A stretch of DNA of 62,578 nucleotides, the filler included, from Hausera hauseri (Eukaryota), in NCBI GenBank assembly GCA_046269625.1. It is 11 parts of 11 records of this genome, joined end to end, with 100 filler letters (N's around TTAATTAATTAA, not from the genome) between each part and the next. Parts side by side here need not be neighbours in the genome. Positions count along the whole stretch, not along the records: positions 36,290 to 44,210 come from JBJURY010874292.1; 10 more parts are not named here. One strand, 5' to 3'. The position numbers and the translations under genes are program-made. Shown here one piece after another: positions 4,138-58,021 of this stretch. The notes below the pieces were generated by a model. That model searched no databases, was not told the DNA's origin, and worked only from the letters and a program-made list of their open reading frames with translations. Each line of letters opens with the position of its first letter. The first letter of the stretch is position 1.

Positions 4138-4584
4138 ATTTGCATCTAACTGGACTATTTGAAATTATGCGGGATTCGAAAATTAAACAATTTATAACTG
4201 CTCTAAAGAATTCTATGGCTGATAATGGGTATGTAGCTGAAAACGAACAAGTATGTTTGGAAAGTATCCGAGAAGACTTTCCCACTTCATCATACATACT
4301 TGATGATGTGTTAGGTCACCCAGGTCAATCACTTTGAATTTTATGAAGTTGAAACATGTTAAACATGTTTGCCGTATGTTACTTATGTTACTACTATGTT
4401 TATGATTTGTTACTTTCATTTTTTTTTGTTTGTTTTTATTTTCAGATTTTCCTGTTCAGCAAGTTATAGAAAGGAAAAATATATAAAAATACATAAATAA
4501 CAAAATTGTTAAACTAAATTAAAATCTAATCCAAAAACTAAAGTAAAACTAATAACTAAATTAACCAATTTTATTTGTTAGGCG

Positions 4585-5475: not shown

Positions 5476-5530
5476 ATTAAATTATAAATTAAAAATAAAG
5501 CTTGGAGGAGGCTTGTAATATTAAACAATT

Positions 5531-11021: not shown

Positions 11022-11100
11022 GTATGTTTTCTCATTGCCTTTTATTAACTTTCCAAATTTTGTATTTACTAATTATTGTATACATTTTGTCAATTATAAC

Positions 11101-11321
11101 CATGATAATGACATGACCATGATAATGACATGACCGTGATAATGACATGACCGTGATAATGACATGACAATGATAATGACATGACCGTGATAATGACATG
11201 ACCGTGATAATGACATGACCATGATAATGACATGACCGTGATAATGACATGACCATGATAATGACATGACCATGATAATGACATGACCATGATAATGACA
11301 TGACAATGATAATGACATGAC
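11101..11321 (+). repeat. Intronic 17-bp minisatellite (CATGATAATGACATGAC), 13 units, running into the gap
   Basis: Direct tandem units with only CAT/CGT/AAT variation and no spacers. Confidence 0.97.
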
Positions 11322-11992
11322 NNNNNNNNNNNNNNNNNNNNNNNNNNNNNNNNNNNNNNNNNNNNTTAATTAATTAANNNNNNNNNNNNNNNNNNNNNNN
11401 NNNNNNNNNNNNNNNNNNNNNTTCTTTTTTAATGAAGATACGCTGTTTGAATATTGCAGAGCTGCCGATTATATTTCTTATTTTCAAACTATGTTTGGTT
11501 GCCTTAGTGAATCGAATATTCTATCGAGGCATTGAATACGCTACATAAAGTGCAGCGCCAAAGCGATTAGCATGTGAGTTTCTTTCTTTTCTATTAATGT
11601 TTACGGAACTCAATGCCGGTGATTGAACATTGTGGCACTATTGAATTTAGTGTGGTGTAATATATGTTTCAATGTTTTAAGTTCCGAGAAATTACATTAT
11701 AATCAATGTGTGTCGAGTTTGCGCATAATCATACATGGAAAATGATTGTGTCGAAGTGCGCAATTTTCACAGCTTACCCATTAAATTGTTTTCAAACTAC
11801 GCCAATACAGATGATTAAGGTTGTTCGCTGCTTTGAATTTCTCTTTACAGTCAATAGTTGGAAGCCTTATGACTTATTTTACAAATGCTCGATTTACGAA
11901 TACTGCCACAATAAAACAAAAGCTACCAAAGACGCTGCATTTTTCTTGTTTGGATCTAGTCTTTAAGAGCATATTCAGTATTGTCAGTCTAG

Positions 11993-26968: not shown

Positions 26969-29900
26969 TGCAGGACTATGCAAAACCGATGAATTCAGTG
27001 GGTATTTTTATGTGCTCGACATGCTTTAGTTGGGCTTATATTGTCATTCATTACTTTCAACTTCAATCCAGGCTTTTCAATGACGATTATGAAACAAACG
27101 GTCAAAATTAAAAGATAAAATAATTGGTAGCCTGATAAACGACCAAATAAGAATATTGATTTTATTTGACACTGATATGGACTGTTCGGCTGCCAAACAA
27201 ACACAGGCCAAAAGGTAAAAAGGTAGGACGAAAACCGTGCCGGCTTAGCTGCACTGAACGGTGACCCGACTGCCAAAAATGGCGGGCCATATCTTAGACT
27301 GTGGCACTACATAATCTCACCCGTGTGGCAAAAAAGAAACTGTAAAGTAAAACAGAAAGAGGCAAAACGCAAAAATATGTTTAGTGCCTATTGGGTTTTG
27401 GTGTGTATAAGGCGTTGTATTCCATCTGCGGATTTTTCCGTATTATAGGTACTAAATGTCACTTTGCATGCCTTATTTGATTTGTGCTTGGCTGTTGAAC
27501 GATATTTTGTAGTAGACGTTTTATAAGGTTTTCTGATTCAATGCGCTGTGTTGCTTGTGGTAAAGACGTTAAAGATGGTGAGAGAATAAATCAAGCAAGA
27601 AAGGCGAAGAAACTGAAGGCAGTGGAGGTGATAAAAGAGAGGGAAAAGAGGCGGGCGGAGAAAACGGAATAAGCAACGTAGGCACTGTAAGCGTTGCGGA
27701 AGATGAGGATAGTTTAGCGTGAGAGAAAAGTGGTTGCTGCAATGGAGCGAAATCGTGGAGAAAGTTTGAGGAAGGAATGGAAGGAGTGAGAGTTGAGTTA
27801 GGGTTGGGGGTAGAATCGGCATCCGGTTTGTCGTCAACTAAGGAAGCGGGTTTAAGATTCGAAATGTAGACGTTGTAGGGTTTGTCTTGGCATAAGATGG
27901 TAGCTGTATGAGATGAGAAGTGAAGAAGTTTGTATGGGCCAACATACTGAGATCAAAAACCCGAAGGTGATTGATCCTTCAGCCACACAAACTTGGCTGA
28001 GTATAAATTCTTCGGAATGTACGATTTGTTATTGTTAAATATGCAGCAGAACAAGTCTGAGCTGACCTCAACAAAGTGAGTCTGGGCCGCGCGAATATTT
28101 TCGTCTGTCAGATTGTCGTCGAGGTTGGAAAGTTCGAACAGATCCCATATTGGAGTCCCAAAAAGTGCCTCAGCTGGAGCACACCCCGTGGTAGTGGAAG
28201 GAGTGTTGCGCCAATCGAGTAGAACAAATAGTAGGATAAACGTCAAATTGCCATGATTGTCTGCCAAGATTTTTAAAGAAATTTTCATTGTTCGATGGAA
28301 CCTTTCAAGAAGGCCATTTGATTATGGATAATACGGCGTTGTATGGAAATGTGATATTTCCAAGCGTTTAACAAGTGATTTAAAGAGTTCCGATTTGAAC
28401 TGCGGATTTTGGTCCGTTATTATGTGCCGTGGGGATCAAAAGCGACTGATCCAGATTTTAATAAAAGCATCTGCTACTGAATCAGTGTTTGTTGAACGGA
28501 GAGGAACGGCTTCAGGCAAGCAAAAATTACGATCCATTATAGTGAGAATATGTTGACAGCCGTTGTCAGAAGGTAAGGGTCCAACGAGATGAAGATGGAC
28601 GGTACAGGGGAAGTGGTAAAGCGGTAGTTTAAGATGTTTGTTATCTTTATATTTTTTTACAGGCTACGCATTTCTTAACCCAGCCCTGAACATCTGTGCG
28701 CATTGATGGCCAAACTACATGACATTGGAACAAACGAAACGTGGCTTTCGAGCCTGGATGATGAAGTAAAAGCGTGTGAAGGAAAGCTGGTTTCTGCAAA
28801 GAAGGAGCAAGAATGATTTTTTATTACCGGGATTAGATGTGTCATATACAATGTCATCAATGATTTCGAAGTATTTGAAAGAGCTACAAATATCAGCAGA
28901 CGGCTGATTGAGATTTAAAATTTCGGCAGAAAATATTTGTTCAACCGTAATTGAGTTGATCGATCGCCAGAGGAAATTCGCGACCAAATTATCAGTACCT
29001 GAAATAAACTTTATGACAAAACTAAATGTAGATAGGTACAATATTTGTCGTTCCTGCCTTAGTGATGTCTGTTTTAATGACATGAGGTGCATCAGAGAGA
29101 GGAGGAGATGTTTGAAATGTTTTACTGCCAGAGCTATGGCTAGTAGCTCACGATCAAATGTTAAATATCGGCTTTCTGGTTGTGTCAGTTTTCGAGAGCA
29201 AAATTCTAAATATTCATCTTGTGTAGTATTGCACCAGTAGCTGTGGTAGGGGCATCGATTGTGAGTATCAGCTGTTCGTCGGGTTTTTGATAGGCCAGTA
29301 TTTCGACGGTTTTTAGGTCTTCACGTAAGCGATAGAGTTTGGTGACTAAATCAGGTGTCCACTGCATTAATTGTCTTTTATTTCCAGATGAGAGGTGTGA
29401 GAAAGGTGCTGTAAGCTTAAAGCAATGCGATACGTATTTATGGACGAAATGTAGTGTGCCAAGAAAACTCCTCATATCTGTAGTGGTCGTTGGTAGTGTT
29501 ACATTTTTCAATTGCTGTAGTCGATCAGATTGTGGAGAGTGGCCGTTAGGTGTAATGCTGTGGCCTAAGAAATTAACACGTTTCTGAAAGAAGTTGCACT
29601 TGGAGAAGTTAACTTCTAAGTTGCTATGATGTAGTCTGTGAAAAATAATTCGGAGAAGTTCATGGCGTTGTTTGACGGAGTTGGAGGCAACTAATATGTC
29701 ATCGATGTACGAATGAGCAAAATCAAGGCCTGAGAGAACGGTGTCGATATGGCGTTGAAAGGTTTGGGATGCGTTACGTAAACCTAATGGCATAAAGATG
29801 TATTCGTAGAGGCCAAATGGAGTGATGACAGCAGTCTTTGGAATGTCATCGGGTGCAACGAAAATTTGGTGGTAGGCTTTGTGCAGATCTATTGTGGAAT

Positions 29901-30759
29901 AGGTATTGGTGCTGTTAAGACTGTGCAGGATGTCTTTTATGACCGGTAATGGGTAAGCATCCATGATGATTAGATAGTTTATTTGACGGTAGTCGTCACA
30001 TGGTCGAAAAGTACCGTCTTTTTGCTATTACGTGTAATGGTGAAGCCCATGGTGATTTTGACCTCCGAATGATACCAGATTTTTCGAGTTCCTTAAACTC
30101 TAATTCCACGGCTTTTCGTCTACGAGGAGATAAGGGTCTCACATTCTGTCTGATAGGTCTTTGGTGTTTGGTGACAATGTGGTGATAAGTTGTTGATGGC
30201 GGCTTAAACTAGAGTTTTTTTTGAGTATGCGAGAACTAAAAGAAATGATGTAAGATTCGAGATTGAAATCTAGTGATAAAAATAATTGAGGCATATTATC
30301 AGAGGAGGCGGTGACTGTGATTGGCGAAGAACGAACGACATCGCCGCCATGAACATTCGGTTTAACCGATTGTTTTAAAATCAATTTCGATATTTAAGAT
30401 GTAATTGAGAAAACAGATAAACTACTAGATGTATCGTTATCAACCGACGAGCAATTTGCCAAATTTACATGTGAGTTCGCAGACGAAGTGCCTGTTGAGC
30501 TGTATTGTAGACAATTGTTAACGTTCACGAGGGAGTCTCTACGTAGCAAACAGCCATACTTGCAGTCAACTAGCAGGTCGTGTGCGGCCAAAAAATATGA
30601 GCCTATTATTGGCGATTTAATATTGGCCACGTGGAATTTCTAGACAAACTTGCCTGGTAAATTTTAAAATGTAAAAATCAGTTCCGTGGTACTTGAGATT
30701 CGCAAAAGTTAACCACTAGCAGCGAAAATCGGGAGAGACGAAACTGCAATGGATGTAGG
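26969..30759 (-). mobile_element. Decayed Gypsy element of the same family as 21311-26144 (PR-RT-RH-INT, PPT, 3' LTR at ~26969-27311)
   Basis: DAYPLP, IDLHKAYHQ, YIDD, TIDA, integrase core; on the - strand the PPT-like GGGTGAGA is followed by TGTAGTGCC starting at 27311. The left boundary of the LTR is tentative. Confidence 0.9.
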
Positions 30760-32089: not shown

Positions 32090-35017
32090 AATTTAAAAAC
32101 GTTTAAGGTGACAGGAAACAATGGTATCTGTCACAGCGAGCTGTACCATACGCCGAAGATTTTATTGCCAATATAGGCGAAAAGCTCCAGGAGAAAATTG
32201 CCAACTACACGGAAAAGGGCAGTGGATGGCGAATTATACAAATTGTCGCCCTCGGCTTTATTATAAGAAGGTCGAGTGACATAATATATTTGTCCGGCCG
32301 ATCATTTATACCAACATCTGTAGCTCTGAAGCAGTCTGGCGATAGTGAATGTAAAAATACTAACGGCGGTATTGAAATATGACGAAGTGGACACACATAG
32401 CTCATCTCGTCCAAAACACTATCAGAAATATTTTTCCGAATTGGATTTCGATGAAAGCTGGATGCCGATGAAACTGAAATCCATTCCGGCTTTTGAACAG
32501 CGTATTCCGACACTGCAATCAACGTGTTCCGGTACAACATCATCGTAGAAATACCGGCGGATAAAGAAATTTAGAAAGATCCTCATCTGAATATAATCTA
32601 TCGTACTCGGAACCCAAATGGCCGCTCAGCAAATTTGCTGCTACTGGAACAAAAAGAAAAGTACCTTTACGTTGCAGTGACAAATCTAGACAGACTACTG
32701 AACATGCAGCAAGACCATTTTCTTCAAAAACGGATACAGTGTAAATGGTGTCCTGTATGGCATCATGGATTCAGATCGGAAAAACATGGGAGAAACACGT
32801 CACTCTGTGCATAGAAGGTTCTTCAGGAACCACAATGTAAATCATGCCCGTCAAACAGAAACTCAGGTTCACTGATTGGTTAAAAACAGACAGTTCGGCA
32901 TAGGTATTATATGCCGATATCGAAGCTATGTTACCACGGCATAACATACATGACCAAAAACATGTTCCAATCGCCATCAAAATGTTGGTTGTTCAAATAA
33001 GAGCTGCAGATCAATATCAATTTTATGTTTTCCACGGATGGACTTGTGTACGCGATTTTTTGCAGCTGTTGCAAACCATAGTGGAAACTGAAATTGCACA
33101 CTGGTACAGTAGAAATAGCAATAAACTCTTGATGTGGACACATGAAGATGACCGCCTGATGATTGCAGTCACAGATAAATGTTATCCGTGCCACAAAATA
33201 TTACCGTTTGACGCATTGGAATGGCTCGTACCGGATCACGATCATTTTACTGGTCGATATCTCGGAGCAGCTTGCAATTCATGCAATTTGGCAAGGTGTG
33301 TGCGGCCATTTCTGCCGATGGTATTTCATAACTTCATGGGTTATGATTGTCACCATATTTTGAAATGGGCAATAAGTAAATTTTCGCAATGGGAACTATC
33401 CGTAATTCTGACTACAATGGAGAAATACATGTTAGTGTCTGCTCGTATAAACCGGTTCCACGTACGCTTCTTTGAATCATTGCAGTTTCTCAATGAATCA
33501 GTGGCAAAGCAGGTAAATGCCTTATGAGATATACCGATAGCACTGATGCAGTTCCCTGCAAATATTGGGCGCAGCAAAGACATATTTCAATATGAATTTG
33601 CAACATCGTATGAGCGACTCCGGAGAGCAGAGGAATTACCGCCGCGATGGACAGGTACTAGAATGAATATAGGATGAATACCAGAAAGCACAGTGGTGTT
33701 GGAAAGAACTCGGCTGTAGAAATATATTGGATTACATGCTGCGGTATCTTAAACGGTATGTGCGCTTATTAGCTGATGTATTCCAGGCGTTTCGAAAATG
33801 AGTTTGGCGTCAGCTCTAATGTCACTGGATCGAGACATTGAGCTGCTGCAAGACCCGGAAATGTACCGGCTGTTTGATGCTGGTATTCGCAGCGGCATGG
33901 CTTTTGTCAACAAGCATCAGGTCCTTACTACCGATATCACATCACTGCTGTATATTGATATTAATAACCTGTATGGCTGGGCGCTTTCGCATCCCTTACC
34001 GTACGGTTCATTCGAATGAGTTGTCGACAGACAAAATCTGGATGACATAATGGTCAACCTGCCAAGAGCACACATGGCAGGCTCAGTCGGATACCTGACG
34101 GAGGTTTTGGACGATTTACCGGTAGGGCCATTTAACCAATGTCCGCCAGGCTCAAAAGTGAAGAAACTGCTAATGACGCATTAACTGAAGCTGAACTACG
34201 TGGTCCATTGGCGTTTTCTACAGTTCTGCATGCAGCTCGGTGTGCGCGTAACACAGCTGCATCGTACAATCCCATTTTCTCAGCTTCTATATTCAAGGCC
34301 TACGTAAATGGAAATTCGGAGAAACGTCCCAGCTTGTACAAAGTTCGAAAATGATTACTACAAGCTAAAAAACAATTTCCTGTGCGAAAAAACAGCGGAG
34401 AATCTGAAAAAGTGGTTTAATGTACGCCTATACAATAGCTAAAAGTGATTGGTCACATACACAAGTAAGGTTCAGTTTCGGCGGTCAATCCAAACTGCCG
34501 ATGGATTGGTTGCGGTTCTGTTAAACCTTCTCCGGCCAAGTTACATAAGACAAGTGGTACTGACCTGAGCAAGTTGCGGATGTATGAGCTACAGTATCGC
34601 GATTTAGCACGTTACCGGCAAATGTTTGACGGCTGTGATATTAGTATAACTGCCGATGACACAGACAGTTTTTTCCTGCGGCTGAAAAATGTCAATCGCA
34701 AACAGCTACTGCAGTAAATATTGTCAGATGGATCACGGGACACGTCCAACTATCCACCGGATCATCCGTTGTACAGCAGCGCGATTACCAACAAAATCGG
34801 CTGCTTCAAGAATGAAAGTGAAGTTAGTGTCCGGTATTGGGAATGTATATTCCTACGCCTAAAGTGCTAGTCTTCTGACGGACTGTGGACCGAAAATACG
34901 GGCAAAGGGAGTCTAGCCGAGACACACGGAAATCGACAACGGTGATTATCGCCGTATATATAAAAAAGTAGCGGCAGAAGGAAAACAAACAGTGGCTGTT
35001 GTATCTCAAATGATCGT
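32090..35017 (+). pseudogene. Polinton/Maverick-type protein-primed DNA polymerase B relic with embedded HNH (endonuclease VII-like) module
   Basis: EKGSGW; LYADIE; DHDHFTGRYLGAACNSCNL; FHNFMGYD; YIDINNLYG (motif A); YYKLKNN (motif B); DTDSFF (motif C); DTSNYPPDHPLY..NKIGCFKNE; many stops and frameshifts. Confidence 0.88.
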
Positions 35018-36509: not shown

Positions 36510-36989
36510 ACGCAAAAACAAGAAAATAGTAACTTGGAGAGACGATTCAGACGATGACGACCCTAAGGAGGAGAAGTAAGTTCCAGAGGTAAGATGCACA
36601 AGATGTATTCAAAGGTTAACGCACCATTACCTATAATCCCACCAACCACACCAATATTTGAAGATTGTGATCGTAAATCGATAGTATCATGTAACTCCGA
36701 AATATACCAAAAGCCTATTAATTATGAAGATCCTTACGAAAGAACAAAACATTATGGAGTACTAAGGAAATGAATGTTATTAATCAAGAACTTACAAAAA
36801 AACAATCAAGGGATAATATATTCGAAAAGGGTACCTCGTAACATAAAATCCAAGTCAACTATTTGGGAGAACCCGAAACTGTGTTCCATCTCAGGTATGC
36901 TGCCGCAAAAACCACTCATTGACAATTACATTAATGAAATAGCGAGCAATAATTTGTACCCGAACGTAGAATTAAGGCAAGTAAAGGTG

Positions 36990-39900
36990 AATATCATGTT
37001 ATCGCCAAAAATAACAATAAACGGACACGGAGTCTCTACTATAAAGCCGTCGAAGATAGCGTCAGATTGTGTCGGAACAGTAGTAGTAGGGAGACCTTTT
37101 GCTAAAACACACATTGAAGATTGGGACGTATATGCCTTAATCGACATAGGATCAGAAAAATCATTTATAAAATATGAATCTATACAAACCACATTGCGTG
37201 ACCAGTTATGCCTACCCGCATCATCGAACCCAGATAGTGTAGGAACATTCGTACATATATCGAAGCCAAAATTCAAATGGACTCCTACCATTTATATGAT
37301 TGGTGAAGCAATTCAACACGAATTTGCCATAATTGACCAGTTAACAGACGATGTAGTACAGGATTGCGACGTATTAAAGAAGATACCAGGTCTAGCAATC
37401 GATGTGCATAACGGAAAACTAATTGAGCTCAAAACATTAAAAGGGACAAAGGTAATAAAGGAGAGGAAATCGGGCGAAGTATGGATTTCGGTAGATAAAG
37501 ACATTCCGCCCAGAACCGAAATGGTAATTTTCGCACAAATTCGTCAGGACGAAGATCTGCCAGTATACTTCGAGGCTCAAGGGAATATAGATCCAAACTT
37601 TATGTTTAGCAATATTCTATGTAGAGTAGTGACGGGACGAATACCTATTAGATTAATGAACAATGACCAACGATAGTGAGATTGCACAATAACACTACGT
37701 TAGATCACACTTGCAGAGTATCTGCAATAACAATCGAAGAAAAATCATACAAATGCGCTGAGTTTCCACCTCACGTCGAAGCCAAATTTTCTTTTGAGGC
37801 ATATTGCAAGTTCTATGAATTATTATTCAAATACAGTTAATAATTGCACAAAATGAGGAAGACATAGGTAGAGCAAAGGCCCTGAGATTAACAATCCCGT
37901 TAAGAAAAAAACATGGCTCGAATGACGAAATTGATCTAGAACAGAAAATGCCTAAGTGGTACCCACCTCGTCATTCATTGAGACCAGAGATAACTAAAGA
38001 GGTAGAGCGAATGTTAAAGCCCATATAATTTGATCAAGATATCGATCATGGTACTGACCAATACTTATGGTTAAAAAGAAAGGAACTACGAAACACATAT
38101 TTTGTATCGATTACAGGGCATTAAATACGCTTATGATAAAAGACTCGTTCCCATTACCATCGGTAAAAGAAGCATTAGACAGATTATCAGGAGCGAAATG
38201 GTTCACCACTCTCGACTTACAATCGGGATACTGGCAAGTGGAAATCAAGAAAGAAGACCGATTTAAGGCAGCATTCAAAACACACGATGATGTATACGAA
38301 TTTAATATTATGCCCTTTGGAATTACCACAGGACAACCTATTTTTACAATAATGATGAACAAGATGTTTATGGGACTCGATCATGCATTCGCGTACTTAG
38401 ATGACGTGATGATAGCGTCAAAAACAGAGAAAGAACACTTAAAGTACATCGAGGATACACTCATGCGACTGTAACAAGCAGTATTGAAATTAAGTCCAAA
38501 TAAATGTAAATGGGCACAAAATACAGTGTCATACCTCGGACACAAAGTCGGAGAAGGAGAATCAAAACCTTATAAATCCCTGTTAAATAAAATATCTGAT
38601 TGTATCGAACCCCAGAACCAAAAAGAGTTAAAACACTGGCTATGTGGGTATTATGCTACTTACGTGCCGGACAACTCAAAAATTAATGCACCACTATATC
38701 GCCTACTCAAAAAAAGGACTAAATGGAGATGACCGGAAATAGAGCCAAAAGCATTTGATAAAATGAAGAAAATTTTGACAAGCAAACAAATTCTGAGATA
38801 CCCTGATGTAGCTTACCATTCATCATTAAAACAGACGTAAGTAAGGAAGGTATAGGATATGAACTAGCTCAAAAACGAGAAGACGAAGAACTAGAACACT
38901 CAATAGCTTATGGGGACGTTCGCTGAAGAAAGCAGAAAAATTATTCACTTACCGAACTAGAAACGTTAGCCGTAAAGAAAGAACTACGAAACTTTAATGT
39001 CTATGTCTATGGACAAAATATTATAATATTGACCGACTACAAAGCAATTACGACATTGAAAGGAGGAGCTAATAACCCAACATACAGATTAAACCGTTGG
39101 ATCGAGAAAATCTCACAATATAACATCGAATTCCAATACAAACCAGGCAACAAACAAGTCGACGCCGACGCAATATCAAGGTTAATGACGAAAACAAGTG
39201 GGATTACTACAGTGAAGAAAACGCAACTTGAACAATTAATTGAACGTCAAGGAACCTTAACCTTGGATAAAACGATTAGGATCACTGCAGAGCAAGCTAA
39301 AGATAAGGTTATCCAGCAGATTGTCGACTTCGCACAGAACGATAAAATGCCCCAACGAAGACAACTGAAGAAGCATCTACAAAAACACGGACATAAATAT
39401 CGCGCATCGAACCAAGATAACATCCTATATTACGAACAAAAAGGTAGAAGACTAATAGTTATTCCAAAAGGATTACGCGTCGACGTACTTACGGCTGAAC
39501 ACGATTCATATTTAGCTGTACATACGTCTTGGAAAAAGACTTTGCAAATGATATTAAATAAATACTATTGGCCAAGCATTTATATTGATGTAAAAAATTG
39601 GATAAGTGCTTACGAAGTTTTTGCGACAACGCTAAAGAAAACGAAAGGCTACGCAGCAGAATTAAAGCCCATAAACGTACCAAACAGGTCCATGCAAGCT
39701 ATGTCTATTGAATATAGTTGGATCTTTGCCTAAAACTTATCGAAATAACATGTATATTCTGCCATGCGTAGATCGGTAAACGCATTTTGTCGAATTGATG
39801 GCACTATTATATCAAAAGACGGAAACTTTAGACGACGCAGTGGTAAGAAAAATCATTTGCAGATACGGACCACCAGAACAAGTCTTAATGGATAGAGGAA

Positions 39901-40574
39901 GGAATTTCACAAGCGAATTATTTAAAAAGATTACCAAAATATTCGAAATCGAACGCTTAATTACTACCGCGTACTACCCACAATGTAATGGAATGGTCGA
40001 ACGAATGAACGCAATAGTCATTCGCATACTATCAACAGTAGTAGCCAAGGATCAAAAGGATTGAGGCGAATTCTTAGAAGGGCCACACTTCGCCATTAAT
40101 ACGACCCCACATCCAGCAACCAGATTTACACCGTTCTTTATGATGTATGGACGAGAAGCAATATTACCTACAGATCTAGGTATGACACCATACGTAAAGT
40201 ACCTCGAGGATCTAGAGCAAAACTTTGCCGAAGTCTTATAGACAAAATCGCAAAAAGTGTTGGGAAGTCGCAAAAACACTGTCACTCGAATACCAGGAAC
40301 AATTTAAAAAACAATATGATAAAAAGACTAAGTCCCACGATTTGGGAAAAGGAAACTGGGTTTATATACATTACCCAGTCGCAAAGAAAGGTACATCCTT
40401 GAAATTAACTCGTACCGGAAGAGGACCATATGAAATCGTCCTCACAATGCCAACCACGGTCTATATTAAGAAAACGGTAAAGAGGAAGTTGTATCAATCC
40501 AAAGAGTAGTTAAGACAGATATAAGACCAGACAAACGCTACAATTTAAGACAGCGAGAAGCCAAGACATCGTAA
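36990..40574 (+). pseudogene. Gypsy pol: aspartic protease, RT, RNase H, integrase
   Basis: ALIDIGSEKSFI; CIDYRALN, LDLQSGYWQV, MPFGI, YLDDV; KTDVSKEGIG, TDYKA, DADAISR; HDSYLAVH, MDRGRNF, YYPQCNGMVER, GPY, RYNLR. Confidence 0.93.
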
Positions 40575-42000
40575 ATTGTCACCAAACCGGTATCTTACGC
40601 ACAGATAATAGTACCCTTATCGCTGATTGCTGTTCTAACACCCAAGTCTAACGTCCAATGGTGGGTCGACGAAACTTCGTTGAGCAATATATATGGAATT
40701 CGGAAAACAGGATTAAAATCTTTGCCACCAAAGGATTGAACTTCCGAACGCAAAGCAGAACAAAAGGATAAAAAATTCTCACGATAGATAAAATTAGATT
40801 ATTCTTCGCCAGAAATCCCATATGTCGGGTTTAGGATACCAGGACCATAAAAAGGCACATTCAAATAATATTCCACGACCTATTAAGCCGATTTGAGTCT
40901 GATTGTAACTTCGAACCAGAAGACGATCCAATTTGCTTTAACGTAAAATATGGACACTCTTACGCTCTCAGTTATCGTTTATATCTGTTGAACTGCAATG
41001 AAATACGCGCCGAAATAAAATTGAATTTACATCTAGTTATACCACGAACTTATGGAGACTACCTTAATATAGAGTTGGAAGAGATGCTCCAGTCTATCGA
41101 CCCATTAAAACGGATTCTAGAAGAAAATATAGCTAGTATAACGGAAAACCCAAAGGATTGCTGTATCCAAATAAACACAAAGGGGCGGCTAATTATAGGA
41201 CAAGTAATCACGGTTAAATTCATAAAAGAGGACGAAGCAGCTCATAGACTACAATATTGTCAGATTGACACCGAAAGACCGAATAATAAATATAGAATTC
41301 GACTAGATTTGTATGATGTTCGAACAAGCCAACCAAGGGTCTTCTTAGGAAGTTACCAATTGGGAAATCTAATTCAAGGAGCTCTGCCTCAAATAACGAC
41401 CAGTAGAATTACGACTACAAAATTGAATGTAACTATTTCATTTTTCATCAAATTCCTCCAGACAAGTGGATTACCTCAGAGGAATATAGAAATCATTCCT
41501 ATAAAATATTGGATACAACAACATGAGATAACGTTCATTGTGGAAGAAGCACTTAGTTAGGACGTAGAAATTAGCTGCCGAACATTACACAATAACCAGA
41601 AAGTCACAGTGACCAGAGGTAGCTATCGAATCAAATGTACCGGTTTGAAACCAAAAGCAGACTACATAATACAAATGAGCGCAGAGAACAAACAAAGTAG
41701 AACGTTTACGGTACGGACCCTAAACGAGCTTGCCTTAACGAAACCACTAATTAGTGAGAAAACGGCAGACAAAATTACGGCTACCGTTAAAACGAAAAAT
41801 TTAGCTCGACAGACAACTTTGTCATTAATATCGATTATTGGAACGTCAACATTTGCTCTTATAATTTTGATTGCGTTTTGTCGACTTATTACCAAAAATT
41901 TCTATAATAAGCGTCATAAAATCACTGAGAGTGAATTAAGGGTGATGGTACCACAGAAGGAAATCAATGATGTAGTAACCAAACAATTGCAGGTTGGGTT
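40575..42000 (+). pseudogene. Type I membrane protein relic: signal-like segment, ectodomain with fibronectin-III-like module, transmembrane helix
   Basis: IIVPLSLIAVL right after the integrase; CTGLKPKADYIIQMSAENK fits the FN3 L.P...Y...V.A.N signature; TM LSLISIIGTSTFALIILIAFC followed by basic residues. Confidence 0.6.
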
Positions 42001-42590
42001 ATTCCACCATCTAACAAAGAATTGGTTCAAATTTAGAACAATATTTTGTTATTGGATTGACCCTTATTTTTTATTTTTCAGAATGGTAAGTGTGGATAGC
42101 TGAATTAGCATCGACAAATATTTATGGGAATAGGCCACAGTATTTATCCCGAATTCAAAGTCTATTTACAGGCGTATAAACGACGCATTACAAACCAAGG
42201 TCTATATCGAAATCTTAAGAACCAGTGAAATACCGAATGATCTTAAAGGCATTACAGAGGAGAGTCGTGAAGTCTATCTTTATGCAATGCGTGAAAATAA
42301 CCAAGCAAAAGTGTATTCTTTAAAAGAATTAATCCGGAATCGACCCTGTAAAATACAAGATATATACATTCACTTAGCCGATGGAGAATTGTATTACAGA
42401 ATAACAGAACAACCTTGGAACTCTAGTGAAGAGCATTAATACCAATTTAGTACATTTAGAATAAATTGAAGGGGCTTAGAAATATCGACTATGGTTTTGA
42501 ATTCCAAGTAGCGGTCCTTCCTCTTAAGCTTATGTTCGAAGTGACCTACAGAGAAAACTGCAACTTAGGCTTGCTAGTTCTACAGTTTGA

Positions 42591-43158
42591 ACAAACTCCA
42601 ACAGAGGTAGAAAGGACGAACATTGTCAGTCGTATAGGTTATTCCAAGACGGTCGCAACATAAGAATTATAGCCATAAACAGTGGCAGAGGAGATGATGG
42701 ATATGGAACACCCATCGAAATATCTATTAGAGAAAGAGATGGGACTGAAATATATTCTACCGTCATAAACCCCCGGAAACATGTCCAAGAGTCGTACGCA
42801 GAGGTAACTGGTTTAAGAAGAGATCAGCTCATAAGAGGAAAGGATATCCAGATAATTCGTTTAGAGTTGGACCATTGTCTTTATGGCTGTATGTTAGCAG
42901 GTTATAATGTACAACGAGATTGAGCTATTAGGAATATCCGATGCAAATATTGCCGGACTTAGGGAAATAGCCACTCACCCAATAGTCCAAGAACGAATGG
43001 AGAAAGCCGTACAAGAAAGAAATCGACCAACCGCGACAGAAGCTTTCTTTAAACTAATGGTCGAAGCCATGAGCAATGATTCACATAGAATTCCAAGACT
43101 CCTAACGGGCAGTCAACGTTCCAAATATCTGCAAGAAATTTACAAGTCATTAAAATGA
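42591..43158 (+). pseudogene. DEDDh-family 3'-5' exonuclease relic (REX4/ISG20-like)
   Basis: Frame 42591-42923: IRIIAINSG...EISIRERDGTEIYSTVINPRKHVQESYAEVTGLRRDQLIRG...LYGCMLAGYNVQRD, then a frameshift to ELLGI..LREIA; fits the vSiv...G..lyd..v.P...v......vsGi....L...l.g..lvGh....D pattern; the ExoI acidic residues appear mutated. Confidence 0.7.
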
Positions 43159-44079
43159 GAACATGAATGGGCCCCGAGAAACCCCACACATAATTTACGT
43201 AGTTCCCTGGAACCCGAAAACAGACGTCAAATACAGAAAGAATATAAAACCATATTCCCCAATCAGAATCGTTCAACCGACAGACGACCATAGCCTTACA
43301 ATTGCTGTGCAACAAAAGACAGAAAACAAGATAAAATTACCAGAAATCAAAAAGGAAGACAAAATACCCACTAGAACGCCGATATTCCTAGGACAGCGAA
43401 AAAAAGAATCGAAGCCAGAAACAATAGTGAAGCGGCAAAAATTGGAAGAAGAGACTCAGCCAAAGAAAGCCCCATCTATCTATAACTATTTATTAAAAAA
43501 GGAAAAGAAGAAAATCAAAAGGACAAAAACCAACCAGTGGTACCAATCACCTCTCAAAAGGCTAAATTCGTAAAGAAAATTGGTAAATCTATGATAACCG
43601 AAATCAATGTTCTATTGGAAAAGAATACCGAAGAAAATGTCCACCGCAAAACGACTCGGAATTATCCAAGAATTCTGATAACTACCGAATACTGTAGCAA
43701 AGAAATGATTAAAGAAGCCATGTTTTTTATCAAAATTGCACCAGCCAGAGAAGTATTCGAGAATATATATGTGTGGGAAAACCCTAAGTTAGGGTAGTAT
43801 CGCACTTCAGTTTTCCGCTCAAAGAAGACAGGAAAATTAATAGTTCAAGTAGATAAGCAGATCCGGATACTATTGAAGAAGCAATACCAAAAATATCAAA
43901 TAGAAGTAAAAGTTTCCGATTTAGATCCAGATCTTATGGCGGACTGGACATTAATACAAGTAAATTGTGACCCCCGGAAAAGTTCCATTAACCCCAAACA
44001 AAAGGTAATAGATGGATACCTGTACCAAGACGGAGATGGTCTTGTGTTTGAGCCGATTGAATTAACAATTTAGGTAGAT

Positions 44080-44210
44080 TTGGATAGAGACTGTTGGGAC
44101 AAAGAAGATAATGAATGCCCTGTGTGCGATGCCAATATAAAGAAAGGTTATGTGGTATTAGATAATAACGTTTTCCGACACAAATACTGCCGAGATTGTC
44201 TGGAGAAGTG
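44080..44210 (+). CDS. RING-like zinc finger, truncated by the gap
   Basis: CPVC-x16-HKYCRDC; the Cys normally found two residues before the His is absent. Confidence 0.5.
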
Positions 44211-44310
44211 NNNNNNNNNNNNNNNNNNNNNNNNNNNNNNNNNNNNNNNNNNNNTTAATTAATTAANNNNNNNNNNNNNNNNNNNNNNNNNNNNNNNNNN
44301 NNNNNNNNNN

Positions 44311-45590
44311 TATGATGCATCTTATTGCTGTTTCTCTATTGTGCGATACATTTTCTTGGAACTTGTGTATTATGCCACACGTTTTATTGGTACGTGTGTG
44401 TTATGTGATAGATTTTATTGGTACTTGTGTATTATGTGATACGTCTTATTTATACATGTGTATTATGTGATAAATCTTATTGCTTCTTATGTATTGTGCA
44501 ATACAATTTATTGGTACTTGTGAATTATGTATAACATCTTATTGAACTTGTGTTTTATGTGATACATCTTATTGCTACTTGTGTATTGTGCGATCCATTT
44601 TATTGGAACTTGTGTATTATAGGATACATCTTATAGGTACTTTTGTATTATGTGAAACATCTTATTGCCACTTGTGTATTGTGCGATAAATTTTATTGGT
44701 TCGTGTTTGTTTTGCGACACTTTTTACTGGTACTTGTGTTTTGTGTGATACGGCTTATAGGTACTTGTGTTTTATGTGATTCATCTTATTGGTACTTGTT
44801 TATTGTATGATACATCTTATTAGTGCTTTTGTGTTATGTTATACATATTATTGCTACTTGAGTATTGTGCGATACATTTTATTGGTACTTGTTTTCATGC
44901 GATACATCTTATAGGTGCTTGTGTACTATGTGTACATCTCACTGGTACTTGTGTATTATATGATACATGTTATTAGTACTTACATCTTATTGGTACATCT
45001 TATTAGTACATCTTATTGGTACTTTTGTATTATGCTATACATTTCCTTGGAACTTGTGTGTTATGCGATGCATTTTATTGGTTGGTGTATTATGTGATGC
45101 AGCTTATTGCTACTTGTGCATTGTGCAATACATTTTCTTGGAACTTGTGTATTATGCGATACATCTTATTGGTAAGTGTGTGTTATGTGGTACATCTTAC
45201 CAGTACTTGTGTAATATGCGATACATCTTATAGGTACCTGTGTTTTATGTGATTCTTCCCACTGGTGCTTGTGTATTATATGATACATGTTATTAATACT
45301 TGTGTATTGTCATACGTTTTATTGGTACTTGTGTATTATGCTATACATTTTCTTGGAACTTGTGTATTATGCGATACATCGTATTGGTACGTGTGTGTTA
45401 TGTGATACATCTTATTGCCACTTGTGTATTGTGCGATACATTTTATTGGTACGTGTTTGTTTTGCGATACGTCTTATTGGTACTTGTGTTTTATGTGATT
45501 CATCTTATTGGTACTTGTGTATTATGTGATACATCTTATTGGTATTTGTGTACTATGTGATACATCTTATTGGTACTTGTGTATTATGTG
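44311..45590 (+). repeat. 31-bp minisatellite (GGTACTTGTGTATTATGTGATACATCTTATT), about 40 diverged units
   Basis: Head-to-tail tandem units with no unique spacers. Confidence 0.95.
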
Positions 45591-46019
45591 GTTTGCACAA
45601 ATGATAATGACGATGTATGAAACGTTTGAATTTCAATTCCGTCAAATTATACACAACGAGAATCAAAGAGATTAGGTGCAATGATGAAAAGTACTTTTGT
45701 TTAATAATATATATCGGGCGATTCATTAAAAGTGTCGATTTGTGAATTCAGCCTTGCCATCTTATAACTATATTGAATAAAACTTTGAAACCATCGTTGT
45801 TGGAGTTATTTTTAGTCCTATGATTCGAATTTAATAGTGGATTTTGTCAGAATGATTGTATTTTACTATTCATGGCGATACTACTTTGCTACAACATTCC
45901 AAAAGTTCCCTTACGGATAATTGATTATAATGTTGGGAGGTGTGAGGTTGTGTTTAGGGGAAGACCGGCTCTCTTAACAACTGCCGGTACCACAACTATA
46001 TTATGCAAACTTAAATCAA

Positions 46020-51149: not shown

Positions 51150-52778
51150 ATGACTGACAGTCACAATGACACAATGGAAATCGCGAAAAATGTCGTTTCA
51201 GTTAGTCTTGAATTGGTTACATTACATGTTCAAATGACATTTTCCACCACCAATTTCTTTACACACAATTTTCTACAACTAAAACAATTACTTAACAAAC
51301 AACCAGTATATGTTAAATCACTGCTATTTGATACATACAGTTATGCCTCTGTTAATCCATTAAGTAATATGTTGATATGGGACAATTTAAAGCAACTCCA
51401 TTGTGTCCCTGGCCGAATTGAATTTAGATGAACAAATCCACATAGATATGATCTGCCAAGAGCAGGGATCAAATCTATCAATACAAATACACTTGGATCA
51501 TTTGATCAGATATTTTGTTATTTCGACGAGAAACATCATAAAGGATGTCAGTTACAAAGACCTGCAGTCAGTGTCAATTTCGGATATTACAAAGAATGCC
51601 CATAGAGCCATAAGGTATTCAGAAGAAATAAAACATGGATTGGATCTTGTAGCTTTTAGAACTCTCACAGAATCCGATTTTTTGTATTTAACAATCGTAA
51701 TCCACGGAACGTACAACTTATGAAGCCTAATGCACTCCCTGTTGTTGATATGGTGAAGTTGTCTTATCACATCACTGGAATAATAAGCAAGTACATAAAA
51801 ATGCCGTCGTATTCGACATTTAAAAATCTCACAAAATCTAAGAACAACACCGATGTGTGCGATTTTGCCAAGTCCACCTTTTCAGACCGGTGGCACATCC
51901 AGTGTCGGGTACTGTATGCGCATTGCTTAATGCGTTGGTCAAGGCCAAGACCTTATACTGTAGAATAAGCTACAGGATTGCATTCGCTAACGGCAGAGAT
52001 TGCTGCAAAGCAAACATCTCTATTCTGTTACACTTTAGTTCGGATGGCTTCTATAATACAGACCTTAGTTGGTTGCGCAGCGATACAAAAAGTCATGCAA
52101 TCGACATCTCGTAAATTCATTCCCACTCAACAATGGCTTTATTGTCATGTTCTTGAAATCCTTCACAACTCGAACATAAAAATTTTGCAGAACACAGCAG
52201 CTAACTGTATTTTGGATAGCCAACATTGTGATACAATGGCTGTGTTCTCAAGTAAATCTCGACATTTTGGAAATCGTTGTTGGACCAGAAAACTTCTTTT
52301 CGTGACTGATAATGGTAACATCAAAAAATCACACCTCAATCGACAATTTCTATTTTGTACTCAAGACACACACGAAAAACGAAATCATAATTCGCCGTTA
52401 AGACTGGTAAAACTATGAACCTAGAGAGTGGCTTCGAAGCCTATCAAGACCTTATGTGCCAAAATATCAAACGTGTTTGTAACAAAATTATTCCCAACGC
52501 AATGGTATCGCTAATACTTTTGACACTGTCACTACTCGAACTCACATGTATAGGTTTTGGGCTCTCAACCGAAAACCCTTTTCGGACTCCGGAACTCTTG
52601 GCACCAAAGGAAGTTGTCAAGCGACTGTACTGTTCCTAACAAAATCTTGTTCATCATTACAAGATCCTCCAGAAAAGGTCATTTCCATTTGCACATGAAA
52701 AATGTATCACATCAAATTGAACGTACCCTACTTTGGGTTAGGGATCTATATCAGGGTCTAATTATACACCCGACACGT
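51150..52778 (+). pseudogene. UBA1: Ubiquitin-activating enzyme E1 pseudogene (N-terminal ~60%, no evident introns, many lesions)
   Basis: MEIAKNVV..VTLH; CDFAK; QKVMQSTSRKFIPTQQWLY; VTDNGNIKKSHLNRQFLF; SGTLGTKG..QDPPEK.ISICT (catalytic Cys context); HQIERTLLWVRDLYQGL. Confidence 0.9.
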
Positions 52779-55700
52779 TGTATGCCCGCTGTTTGCCCCA
52801 TGGCCGTGGGTCGCGCGGCGCGTACTGTGGGGTTACCGCGTCGCGCCCCTAGATCCAGCCATCGCATTTTTTCCATTTTCATTTTTAAATACAACACACA
52901 TTCACACACATACCACAAATCATGATACCTTAGGAAAAGTGCTATATGCTTCAATCTTACACGCCACCGACATGTCCGAGTTTGCCTTGTTTTTCAATGG
53001 CTTCATCATCCGTCGACATGATCGGCTGTGTAGCTTTCTTTTGCATCCATTTTCATCCATTTGTGTCACGCTTCAGTCTAAACTGTATAATGGTTCTGAT
53101 CCCAACGCTGATGAGATAAAAAGTCACCTAACATAACCTTCGTGTCGCCAACTCCTTCCTCCTTTTTACACTTTTAGTGCGTCGATTTTTTCCTTGATAG
53201 TCAGAATTCCAGCAAAACATGCCTAGATTTCCACGAATAGATGCTATCCTCACACAATGTCACCGATTCCTTCCAGAAAGCCAACAGTTTACTGATTCAT
53301 CTGCCACCCAACATAAAATCTTTCATCACTAATCTATCTGATATTTTCAATCACTCCGACCCCTACAAATCTCTATTGGACGCCGTAACTACATCAACAG
53401 AGCCTTCGCTAAACTCCATAATTCAAAAATACTTCAACGAAAATGCTCTTGGCCAGAAAAAACCTTCAGAATTTCTTCAAACCACAATCTCACAACTAAA
53501 TTCACTAGGCGTGAACCAACAAAATAACACTGATCTTCTCAGACGTTATTTCTTATAATCTTTTCCAATCAAAATCCGCGCACTCGTCACTGTAGTGGAG
53601 GATTCTATGTCGTTAGACAAACTGGCGCAACTTGCAGACAAAAGTTATGAAAATTTTCACAACAATGATACACATACAACGATTTCAGCTTTACAAGCAA
53701 CACAATCACCAACAATAGTTGCACATCTATAGTCAAAAAACTCATCAAACATCGCAAACAACATAGTTAATGAAATACAAAATCTTCAAGCCAAAAATGC
53801 GGACTTACATCAGGCTATTTCAGCTATATCTAGCAAACTCGACGCTTTATCCTTTCCGCGTCGTGATCAGTTTAGCGCAAATCGAAGTACGCAATAGTCT
53901 GTAAACTTCAGGTGTGCCCAGTCACCTTCGCGATGGATAGTGTGCTATTATCACACAAAATTCAATCGAAATGTCAAAAAATGCCGTATAGGCTGTAAAT
54001 TCTACATGCAGAATTTCCAATCACGCGATGTAGTCTGCATCGATCACAATAAGTTCAAAGACAATGCAAAACGCTGCTTATATGGGTGTACGTTTTACAC
54101 CCAGAACACTCCGACTTCTTCATCTAGTCAAAAAAGAAGAAACCGCCAGAAACTACGACAAATTCTGGCAAAGGCCATCTTTCATCACTTAACAGCTGTA
54201 CTAATGCTGTTTTTCTATTAGACGGTGCACTCACATCTTCTCCACACCATACTAAATTCTTGATTGATTCGGGTGCAACCGTCTCATTATTACCTTCATC
54301 TTTCCATTCTTTAAAAATTCTTCCAACCTTTGCTAGGCTATTTACTACCAATGGGCAAGCCTTACGCATTTCTGGTACTGCAGAACTCTCCTTCACTTTA
54401 GCACATTTCTCTGAACTTTTTCAATAGAAGTTTATTGTTGCTGACATCAAAACTCCCATCTTAAGCATTGATTTTCTATTGCATTACAATTTACTTGTCG
54501 ACTGCGGACAGCATCGTGTGATCAAAAATACCATTAATCATACAAAATCACAAAATAATGCACCATTTGTCGCGCAATTGGCTGTAACGTCACAGTCTAT
54601 AATAAAGAAATCTTTTGTTAAACTAGATAAATTGAATGTTAATAACTCCGATTGTGACGTTTCCATTCATACTGTAACAACAAAAACAATTGCCAACACC
54701 GACACAACCTCTCACCTCACCTACCCATTAATGCAACTGAATAGAGCTCTTCGTGACTACATCACAACTTTTTGTTCTAAAGCATTGAAGAAAGACCCAA
54801 ATTTCAAGCCTGCTTCTACGACGTAACATCACATCGTCACTGATCACCAAAGACCAACTAAACAGAAGGTTAGGCTACTTTCTCCAAGCAGACGCAAAGC
54901 TGTGGAATCGGAGTTAAATGAATTAGAAAAGGCAGGAATTATAAAAAAATCAAAGTCACCTTGGGCCTCATATCTGCACATAGTGCCCAAGAAGGACGGT
55001 ACTTTCAGGGCCTGTGCCAAAAACCATTGAACACCATTACGATAATGGACGCATATCCATTACCGCTCGTCAATGATATCCTATACAGACTTAATGGCAA
55101 CACCATATTTTCATCCATCGATCTTCATAAAGCCTACCATCAAATTCCTCTCTCACCTGCTGACATACCGAAGCAGCCTCTTTGAGTATGTCTTCATGCC
55201 GTTTGGTTTGCGTAATGCCTCTCAGACATTTCAAAGTCACATAGACACAATTCGTTCTGGTCTAAACTTTGCATTTCCTTACATAGATGACATTCTCATA
55301 GCCTCGTCATCCCCTAAACAATATTTTGAGCACTTACGCATAATCTTTCAACGCCTTTACCAAAATAATTTAGAAGTAAATTTCGCCAAATACTCTTTTT
55401 TCCAACACAAGATCCATTTCCTTGCTTATGTCATCACCAAATTTTGCCACTCTTCTTAGCAATACCGCATAACTCAACTTAAGGACATTAAATTGCCTCA
55501 AAAAACTGAAATGCGCTCTTTTCTTGGCACAGTCCACTTTATTAACAAACATGTGCAGCAGTGCTCTGAATTAATCTCACCGTTTGCGTTTTTATCGTCT
55601 GAAAAGAAGAAACAATTATTTCACTGGACTCCTGAACTTGTCAACCAGTTTGATCATTTACGTGAAGGTTTAAAAACTATCGAGATTCTAGCTTATCTCA

Positions 55701-58021
55701 AGCCTGACGCAGAGCTGATATTAACCACAGATGCCTCTACCACAGCAGTCAGTGCAATACTGCACAAAATTTCTACTGGTGTCAAGGAGCCTCTGGAATT
55801 TTATTCTCGGAAACTTACACCACCAGAAATTCATTACTCAACGTTCGACAAAAAGCTCCTAACTATAGTATTAGCCGTGAAACATTTATCGCATTTGTTA
55901 ATTGTCAGATCGTTTACGATTCAAACTGACAGCAGACCTCTTATTCGCATCATGGACACGAAAACTCTCTCACCTCGACAAGAACGTCACATATCGTACT
56001 TGTCGACATTCAATTTGAAAATGGTACTTATTTCAGGTACTGGCAATTTGGTTGCCAATTTTTTGTCGAGATCGGTTAACATCATAGGTGTCACTCCCAT
56101 TTTCTCTCAGGCAGTGCTTCGGCAAAACGTACCAGTTCAGGAAATTCTTAAGTTTTTTAAAAGGCACCAAATCATCGACGGAATAGCCTATGACAATTCT
56201 AAACCCGCAACCACAAATCAATTTTGTCTTCATCTTTGTAGAAAACTGCATTTCACAACGTACATTCCCTTCATCATCCGGATGCCAAAGCAACCTTTCG
56301 TCTTCTGCAACATAGCGTTATATGGCCATCCATGAGATCAGACGTACGGGCTTGGTTTAAGGAATGCGTGGCATGCCAAAAATTCAGAACTCACAAGCAT
56401 CTGAAGCCACCATCATATAACTTTCCCTGGATGTCTCGTTTTAAATCCATTCATATTGATCTAGTCGGCTGTCTTCGTCCAAACAACGGTCATCAATTCA
56501 TACTCACCATGATGGACCGTTCTTCTCAATGGCCAGAAGCCATCCCACTACGTTTCACTAACACAGACACTATCGCGGAGGTCTTTGTCAAAACGTGGAT
56601 CAGCATATTTGGCTCCCCTGGCTTCATAATCACGGATCAAGGTCCACAAGTCAAAATTTTTTAAGTCCTTAGTCAATCGATTGGGGATCAAACATATACA
56701 CACTTCTTTATATCATCCCCAAGCGAACGGTTTACTAGAAAGATTTCACCGCATAATGAAGACCTCACTCAAAATCCTTACTGAATCACACAGCAACTGG
56801 ACAGCTCTTCTACTTCTGGTCCTGCTTGGCTGGCGAAGCACACTCCCAACCACCACGGTTTGTGCACCAGCTGAAGCACTGTTTGGAACACCGAATCGAA
56901 CATTTTACGAGTTAACTGATCTGGATGACACACCAACGGGCGAGCTGATTCGTACTGCGCAAAATCACTTTGTCATACTAAACAAAGACTCATTTTGCAA
57001 AATAGTAAATTATAACAAGTCAAATATACCAAATGATTTGTATACAGCCAAGTTTGTCTGGCTTCTCAATCATTCACCTAGTAGTTTCCAACCGCAGTAT
57101 GTGGGACCATTCAAACTTTTACCTTTATTCTGTCTTACAGCTACCATTCTTAAAAGTGGTAAAGAACAAACTGTGCACATCACAAAATTAAAACCAGCCT
57201 TATTCATTGACTATTCTCCCGAAGACACGCAAACCAACACCAACCCTACTGGCACTTTTCTTGATTTCTTTTCCACCATTTCACCCTCATGAAATTTAAC
57301 TAACTAAGCACGACCTTCAACTGAAGACAAATCTTTTTTCGATTCTTCTTTTCAACCTTTTCCACATTTGCAGTCTCCTCCAAACCTTCACCTTTCTTCA
57401 GACACGCATTCTTCAAGTTCTGATTCACTTCGTATCTTTCCGCACTTCTTATCAACGTCTGAGCCCTCCACAAATCCTCAATCTTTTACATCTCCACGTC
57501 CTCTTTCACCTTCAAATATTACTAATTACCCTTTGCAACCTTCACTTTCCTCAACCAAAATAATACCCTTCATAAAATCCGACATTTTTTCCTCAACTGA
57601 CGCCTCGGCAAGCAAACTCAAATTACGCCAGCAAAACACGCAGAGTCACTTTTAGTAAGTACAGTAGAGAACAAAACTTCGACAAAGTACAACGTTTTGT
57701 ACACAGAAAAACCGAATAGGGCATAAACACTTTTCCTCCTTCCTTTTTTGTTGCGTCATAGTTTAATCTTTGCCACGAGGGGGGGGAGGGCGATATTGTG
57801 CCCTCCTGCTGTTTCCGCGCGATCAAATCGGCATTTTGCCCGATATTCAAATGTATCGAATTCGTACAGCGAATTGTTACAAGCAATTGTTGACCAGAAT
57901 GCCAATAGTGAGGATGTAGCAGAATTACGAGAACTCTTTCAAATGGGTTAAGTTTTTGAATATATTCCGGTAACAGTGCTGTCAGGTTTCTCGGGGGGGG
58001 GGACGGGAGTCGATTCACCCG
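52779..58021 (+). mobile_element. Decayed near-complete CsRn1-like Gypsy element (gag with two CHCC knuckles, PR, RT, RH, INT, PPT, 3' LTR from 57797)
   Basis: FLIDSGA; DAYPLP; YIDD; TTDAS; HIDLVG; YHPQANGLLERFH; GPF; G-rich PPT at 57778-57792 followed by TGTGCCC. Confidence 0.93.

Follow-up and report, generated by a model that had tools for sequence, protein, structure and literature searches.

Sequence comparison very probably identifies the region downstream of pol in a decayed Ty3/gypsy-type element of Hausera hauseri (GenBank assembly GCA_046269625.1) as the remains of a roughly 800-aa protein, ORF4, which is composed of an N-terminal domain, a DEDDh pseudo-exonuclease, a basic linker, a C-terminal domain, and a C3HC4 RING. 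On balance, we favor its reading as a pseudo-exonuclease and RING E3 accessory protein of the gypsy element, which would act as a counter-defense adaptor through binding plus E3 activity; given the identity and architecture, we regard that mechanism as evenly balanced. The stretch of DNA analyzed here (the window; 62,578 nucleotides) joins 11 parts of the assembly, and the element lies in contig JBJURY010874292.1 (36290 to 44210, plus strand), an internal piece that is bounded by N-spacers and has its 3′ end inside the RING. What is new, in our best reading, is an exonuclease-type LTR cargo that is catalytically dead in all known family members and joined to a RING.

Domain architecture and relatives of ORF4

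ORF4, downstream of pol and ORF3, covers about 700 decayed codons and extends from 42104 up to 44210, where the contig stops; all of its parts are on the plus strand. The N-terminal domain (42104 to 42612), which belongs to no known family, is interrupted by stops at 42131 and 42437 and by a frame change between 42478 and 42499; it is identical to the relative P0004 at 53/123 and 15/38 positions, with tblastn E values of 2e-24 (P0004) and 1e-26 (P0005). The DEDDh-fold pseudo-exonuclease domain (42636 to 43179; frame change at 42921, stop at 43156) is identical to P0004 at 50/93 and 32/86 positions. It is followed by a Lys-rich, low-complexity linker with frame changes (43180 to 43665), which aligns weakly to P0004 (38/132 identical) and in which a motif scan located NLS-like motifs, KRQK at 43430 in the window and KKRR in P0004. 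The conserved C-terminal domain (43666 to 44085; stops at 43795 and 44071) shares 70/137 residues with P0004, belongs to no known family, and has no match in Pfam or the PDB. The contig closes with the first half of a C3HC4 RING (44098 to 44210), degenerate and truncated by the contig end, with 21/36 residues identical to P0004. Identity to P0004 by part amounts to 54% and 37% in the DEDDh domain, 51% in the C-terminal domain, 58% in the RING, and 29% in the linker. The RING of P0004 matches zf-C3HC4 (E=2.6e-7; 30.8 bits against a cutoff of 21) with complete C3HC4 zinc-ligand spacing, and the window piece by itself gives weak RING matches in Pfam. Tpt1/KptA, SPRY, MAM, SRA, and WWE were rejected as identities of the family-less domains, having no Pfam or PDB support.

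Among 1.84 billion representatives, a full HMMER scan gave three matches, two of which are true relatives. P0004 (870 aa; E=2e-24; 53% identical) has an uninterrupted frame, and P0005 (333 aa; E=7e-17; 45%) has an open frame that stops short of ExoII; both are ENA singletons. The third match, P0006, was a repeat-driven 34-aa artifact and no relative. The ORF4 family as treated here comprises three sequences (the window copy, P0004, and P0005), with genomic context read for the window copy alone, and P0001 denotes the window peptide read through the frame break with an X. Word-indexed protein searches found no relative among 40 candidates with P0001, P0004 alone among 5,167 candidates, and P0004 and P0005 alone among 6,839. 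No related loci were found in viral contigs (including with an RT query and a reference exonuclease query) or in JGI metagenomes, and tblastn against phages gave no matches for P0005 and two weak ones for P0004. All of the matches from a motif-based search (8/8) were unrelated.

P0004 is colinear with the window across 42110 to 44205 and carries its RING at the C-terminal end. This colinearity with an open-frame protein makes the hidden exonuclease one domain of a single long ORF4. The initial annotation had seen a separate small exonuclease ORF in a unit ending at 43158; the region is instead the middle domain of a protein that ends in a RING, and homology continues on both sides of it, from 42104 to 44205.

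The DEDDh-like fold and its catalytic residues

The frame at 42591 to 42923 (110 aa) reads IIAINSG...PIEISI...GTEIY..VINP...VTGL...LYG..LAGYNVQRD, and its RNase T/REX4-like core motifs, the AINSG at ExoI, and the frame change (at 42921) are all present as initially described. With an HMM built from 13 bacterial DEDDh domains, 2 of which are of a subtype first met through P0004 and somewhat favor the result, this ORF, at 12.2 bits, ranked first among the 697 six-frame pieces of the window that were 40 aa or longer; the runner-up scored 5.2. By the same HMM, P0001 scored 13.1 bits and P0004 23.1 bits, whereas 2000 shuffles of each reached at most 10.4 and 6.0, respectively; P0005 scored 16.9 bits. 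In the ESM Atlas, RNase_T (PF00929) ranked first (0.90) for the window ORF as well as for the P0004 domain; these shared 147 and 161, respectively, of 256 features, short of the tool mark of 170.

The initial annotation had staked its exonuclease on a DEDD-family match of the repaired peptide. Taken to the letter, Pfam goes against it, since RNase_T gave no match for the window ORF, the repaired P0001, P0004, or P0005, and a PDB search with P0001 gave nothing better than ISG20L2 (E=0.53) and ISG20 (E=0.59). With Pfam silent and the PDB weak for P0001, the significance of the fold comes through the relative P0004 and the profile. The P0004 domain matched DnaQ (8h18; E=8e-4) and the PolC exonuclease (2p1j; E=3e-3) in the PDB, polC/DnaQ in NCBIfam (E=0.004 to 0.011), and PHROG 192 (E=1.1e-4), and a plasmid 3′-5′ exonuclease was matched by hhalign (85%; 71 columns; 30%). 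AlphaFold models were of low quality (pLDDT, 30.9 and 34.8), and Foldseek on these low-quality models found nothing at E≤0.001 (VIA best Z, 3.9). As judged from the sequence profiles, the DEDDh-like (DnaQ-like) fold in ORF4 is real and more than chance; the HMM with its shuffles and the PDB, NCBIfam, and PHROG matches of P0004 uphold the proposal of such a domain downstream of gypsy pol.

The family profile, built on an alignment (A4) that misplaces the start of one row from the window, scored 23.1 bits against a bacterial mobile-type DEDDh target that had been picked by similarity, 20.0 against PolC, 18.8 against ISG20L2, 18.1 against DnaQ, and 14.7 against SDN1. The spacing of ISG20L2 matched the profile ungapped over 66 columns (E=0.0063). 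By these scores the DEDDh subfamilies are effectively tied, with no apparent REX4/ISG20 preference, and the REX4/ISG20-specific origin suggested earlier is not supported, as bacterial domains of the DnaQ/PolC type reach equal or higher scores. Over 301 bacterial genomes, the profile gave three weak matches in DEDDh regions (19.7 to 21.1 bits) and no close donor. For the P0004 domain, the ESM Atlas further lists an RNase_T cluster of chlorophyte origin, as well as the NP exonuclease of arenaviruses. All significant matches of the ORF4 domain were DEDDh-type, and no rotifer-type DEDDy domain with intact residues was among them. REXO4, ISG20, ISG20L2, and SDN1, as well as bacterial DnaQ/PolC-type enzymes, have the ExoI-to-ExoII core spacing in common with the ORF4 family; all of these are active with D-E-D-H-D, whereas the ORF4 family retains one of these five residues or none.

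Catalytic columns were read from an alignment to 13 active bacterial DEDDh enzymes. In all three family sequences the ExoI Asp column holds Asn (window position 42678) and D-x-E is absent at ExoI, and the alternative register offered by HMMER is also without an acidic pair. The ExoII Asp is kept in one of the two covering sequences, the window copy (42918), and is absent in P0004. The ExoIII His and Asp columns, assigned by spacing in a gappy alignment, hold Leu (43102) and Arg (43117) in the window and Leu and Cys in P0004, so that both residues are absent in 2/2 sequences. The frame reading RIPRLLTGSQRSKYLQEIY aligns ungapped to P0004 with a score of 105, compared with 16 for the FQDS frame, and the ExoIII-like remnant FQDS*RAVN that had been proposed is an off-frame coincidence.

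Since the same residues are missing in open-frame relatives at about 50% identity, the catalytic loss is common to the family and is not the copy-specific decay that had been suspected. The ORF4 DEDDh domain shows the sequence pattern of a pseudo-exonuclease, with the predicted metal-binding residues lost family-wide (three sequences). The dead domain is as conserved as the other folded domains, a pattern that speaks for earlier selection in the absence of catalysis. A role in primer or RNA trimming, as originally put forward, is unlikely, since trimming needs catalysis and the residues are missing. The ExoI Asp-to-Asn change of the ORF4 domain is the change that abolishes catalysis in TREX1 (D18N). 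It is also the same change as D61N in Plex9.1, for which the available text of PMC10123124 describes catalysis as abolished and DNA binding as kept. The DEDDh domain of P0004 is charge neutral (22 K+R versus 23 D+E) and thus not strongly basic, so an avid nucleic-acid sensor is not favored.

Probable membership in a Ty3/gypsy element

All features of the contig described here lie on the plus strand. A protease-like ORF (36774 to 37676; from the ORF list) has no Pfam match and contains the motif ALIDIGSEKSFI, which, judged by eye, we take to be a retropepsin site. It is followed by a reverse transcriptase interrupted by stops (38058 to 38732; RVT_1 E=1.9e-24 over 38058 to 38471) and by a segment comprising RNase H, an integrase zinc finger, rve, and an integrase C terminus (38927 to 40572), which is interrupted by stops and frame changes and whose 3′ limit was set by translation. 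Pfam matches in this segment are RT_RNaseH (E=3.7e-12), Integrase_H2C2 (1.1e-12), rve (2.5e-5), and MLVIN_C (0.0027). The domain order PR-RT-RH-IN, with RT, RH, and IN identified by Pfam and the protease by motif alone, leads to the Ty3/gypsy assignment. No LTR or long direct repeat and no Rfam match was found within the contig (36290 to 44210). Reading the contig with an alternative genetic code is rejected, since frames are interrupted by all three of TAA, TAG, and TGA.

ORF3 (40835 to 42103; one stop at 41558) is membrane-protein-like and lies in the env position. It contains a transmembrane segment at 41825 to 41881 (hydropathy, 2.46) and a weak FN3-like stretch at ~41573 to 41698 (fn3, E=0.044; FN3con, E=1.7; both below significance); its ectodomain is without family assignment, and no fusogen match was found for ORF3. 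A mildly hydrophobic stretch in another frame, at ~40587 to 40643, could be a decayed ORF3 signal peptide. Between ORF3 and ORF4, at 42057 to 42091, are splice-like signals consisting of a branch point, a pyrimidine tract, CAG, four bases, and GTAAGT, and this is the sole match on both strands of the window to a pattern composed after the site was seen. ORF4 may be expressed by splicing, with these as candidate signals. The N termini of P0004 and P0005 read F-rich...VS...IDxFFQ and could be translated splice-like signals of this site.

Copies of the element were surveyed in run X1, a single public run from one study that is possibly the window's own source. At 80% likeness, 13,560 contigs of this run match the element contig, 6,505 of them less than 90% alike, and 30/30 bins are covered. 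Position 42709 is overlapped by 62 contigs, and a 499-nt diverged sister piece over 42517 to 42963 has 76 differences. Deletion joints in other copies join integrase to ORF3 (40174 to 41648 and 40551 to 41251) and ORF3 to ORF4 (42049 to 42507). The plus strand is uniformly A-rich along the element contig, each of whose five segments, pol among them, shows an A-T skew between +0.13 and +0.27. No sister of ORF3 or ORF4 was found elsewhere in the window, where other contigs match pol only. Our best reading of strand, skew, deletion joints, and divergent copies is that ORF3 and ORF4 belong to a multicopy decayed Ty3/gypsy element.

The window holds four other decayed gypsy-type elements, at 16949 to 19800 (−), 21476 to 25600 (+), 27569 to 30024 (−), and 52762 to 57292 (+), the first of which encodes an integrase whose long C-terminal extension carries a coiled-coil-like tail. 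By eye, a 555-aa open frame at 1823 to 3490 (−) is a non-LTR reverse transcriptase of RTE-like type, and fragments at 32904 to 34717 (+) resemble a Polinton/Maverick-type protein-primed DNA polymerase B (VLYADIE, HNFMGYD, and YIDINNLYG). The region 4582 to 7255 (+) contains an ORF with the motifs ADSHGRH, GGTN, and DGLH-like, which by eye we take to be SGNH/GDSL-esterase-like. A second ORF follows it, with tandem 15-aa repeats and with motifs that look Helitron-like and possibly cysteine-protease-like (also by eye). An uninterrupted 619-aa frame with WD40 repeats at 9189 to 11048 (+) resembles DCAF8 by eye, with a 17-bp tandem array after it (11045 to 11355). A 31-bp tandem satellite array occupies 44304 to 45682.

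Proposed function, alternatives, and known systems

In the reading that we favor, the dead DEDDh domain would bind RNPs or the 3′ ends of nucleic acids and leave them uncut. A host protein encountered at that site, for example a silencing factor or a restriction factor, would next be ubiquitinated by the RING; the ORF4 protein would be an element-encoded counter-defense adaptor and not a trimming enzyme. Countering of silencing, which had been raised as a role at the outset, may proceed, if at all, by binding and ubiquitination rather than by degradation of nucleic acid. Two of the four conserved ORF4 domains belong to no known family and could give the protein another role. The mechanism draws its support from analogy. 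According to the available text of PMC10123124, the restriction of L1 by TREX1 does not depend on catalysis, and degradation of L1 ORF1p is promoted by PML-I. PML joins a RING to a DEDD pseudo-exonuclease (PXL) that binds G-rich nucleic acid and is without activity, as outlined in the accessible part of PMC13659232. A more specific version, which we advance tentatively and consider doubtful, is a “mirror-image PML,” in which a substrate-trap DEDDh domain with a RING E3 would recognize nucleic-acid 3′ ends or small-RNA complexes and direct host silencing or restriction factors to degradation, in an undescribed gypsy lineage with an FN3-bearing membrane ORF3. If true, a retrotransposon would here encode a ubiquitin ligase directed against silencing, akin to viral RING counter-defense proteins.

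The pseudo-exonuclease could instead serve the element itself, by capping or chaperoning, within the particle, the element's RNA or cDNA at the 3′ ends and shielding these from host TREX1/ISG20-like exonucleases, or as a protein scaffold, with the RING acting separately, for instance in trafficking with ORF3. The fold and residue evidence fits this equally, an env-position transmembrane ORF adjoins ORF4, and the near-neutral charge of the P0004 domain points the same way; the NLS-like linker motifs in both long copies and the union of the DEDDh domain and the RING in one polypeptide speak against it, and we consider it rather unlikely. It is highly improbable that ORF3 and ORF4 derive from another mobile unit or an adjoining host gene and not from the gypsy element. 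The contig is without an LTR, the retroelement context was read for the window copy alone, and the splice-like signals at 42057 to 42091 would suit such a neighbor. Against this, strand, skew, and degree of decay equal those of pol, the joints tie integrase to ORF3 and ORF3 to ORF4 in other copies, the divergent copies are many, and P0004 is an uninterrupted frame of 870 codons.

The two enzymatic alternatives turn on the catalytic residues. An active REX4/ISG20-like exonuclease for primer or RNA trimming, dead in the window copy only, would agree with the ungapped ISG20L2 spacing, with the ExoII Asp retained in the window, and with the intact residues of rotifer DEDDy ORFs in LTR elements (as presented in the available portion of PMC5408684). 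This reading is largely refuted and keeps minimal probability, given that the open-frame relatives are without the same residues, the FQDS motif is off-frame, and the scores show no REX4/ISG20 preference. A nuclease with a remodeled active site, for which Maelstrom (a DEDD fold without the DEDD motif) is a precedent, is very unlikely. The arenavirus NP exonuclease, a structural sister of Maelstrom (both points from the accessible text of PMC7968707), is second in the ESM Atlas ranking (0.90), although the row has few shared features (132). In both relatives, ExoI is followed by acidic residues, and the His of L-x-H-x-L-Y-G is kept in 3/3 sequences, but no conserved ECHC-type Cys/His tetrad can be seen, and the Cys beside that His is kept in 2/3.

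Exonuclease-type LTR cargo is itself already known from rotifers. Bdelloid Juno and Vesta LTR retrotransposons and Athena/Terminon elements carry a DEDDy (RNase D-like) ORF3, according to the available text of PMC5408684 (restated in PMC6338049), and, like ORF4, this is DEDD-superfamily cargo downstream of pol. In the same portion of PMC5408684, the rotifer ORF3 is DEDDy with intact DEED residues, in small separate ORFs with no RING described, and exonuclease activity of the cargo is not presented as demonstrated. Set against the rotifer proteins as described, the ORF4 domain is of DEDDh type and catalytically dead, and it belongs to a long protein with a RING. KolobokD elements also carry a DEDDh (DnaQ) exonuclease, but they are DNA transposons, and their enzyme is Exu/TREX/ERI1-like and proposed to be active, with no RING in the available description (PMC9587614). 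The giant gypsy elements of planarians, Burro, resemble the ORF4 element as gypsy elements with ubiquitin- or apoptosis-related cargo (AIR1/RING-labeled, MATH, BIR, SUMO-like, and BCL2 in Burro) and env homology. As far as the accessible part of PMC6431247 goes, that cargo lies mostly within a 5,000-aa gag-pol upstream of RT, with no DEDD domain listed, whereas ORF4 lies downstream of integrase.

PML-1 (RBCC plus PXL) and Exuperantia resemble ORF4 as DEDD-fold pseudo-nucleases and are linked to retroelement control, and PML also has a RING (PMC13659232 and PMC10123124, in their available parts). In the same accounts, PML and Exuperantia are host proteins, and PML has its RING N-terminal in the RBCC and a TREX-like domain, whereas the RING of ORF4 is C-terminal. 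P0004 had no match to Pfam PML_C or B-box. The likeness to PML, as far as sequence goes, is an architectural analogy with no apparent homology beyond the fold.

No gypsy-borne DEDDh pseudo-nuclease–RING protein was found in open-literature titles and abstracts. An exonuclease is also associated with nematode Cer elements, for which the literature search gave no confirmation. To our knowledge, proteins of animal LTR retrotransposons that actively counter host silencing have rarely been documented. A nuclease fold that is kept while catalysis is lost and a RING is fused suggests that binding rather than cutting can be selected; if the ORF4 domain is merely a scaffold, it would be one more unusual transposable-element cargo. 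P0004 is a natural open-frame protein suited to a direct test.
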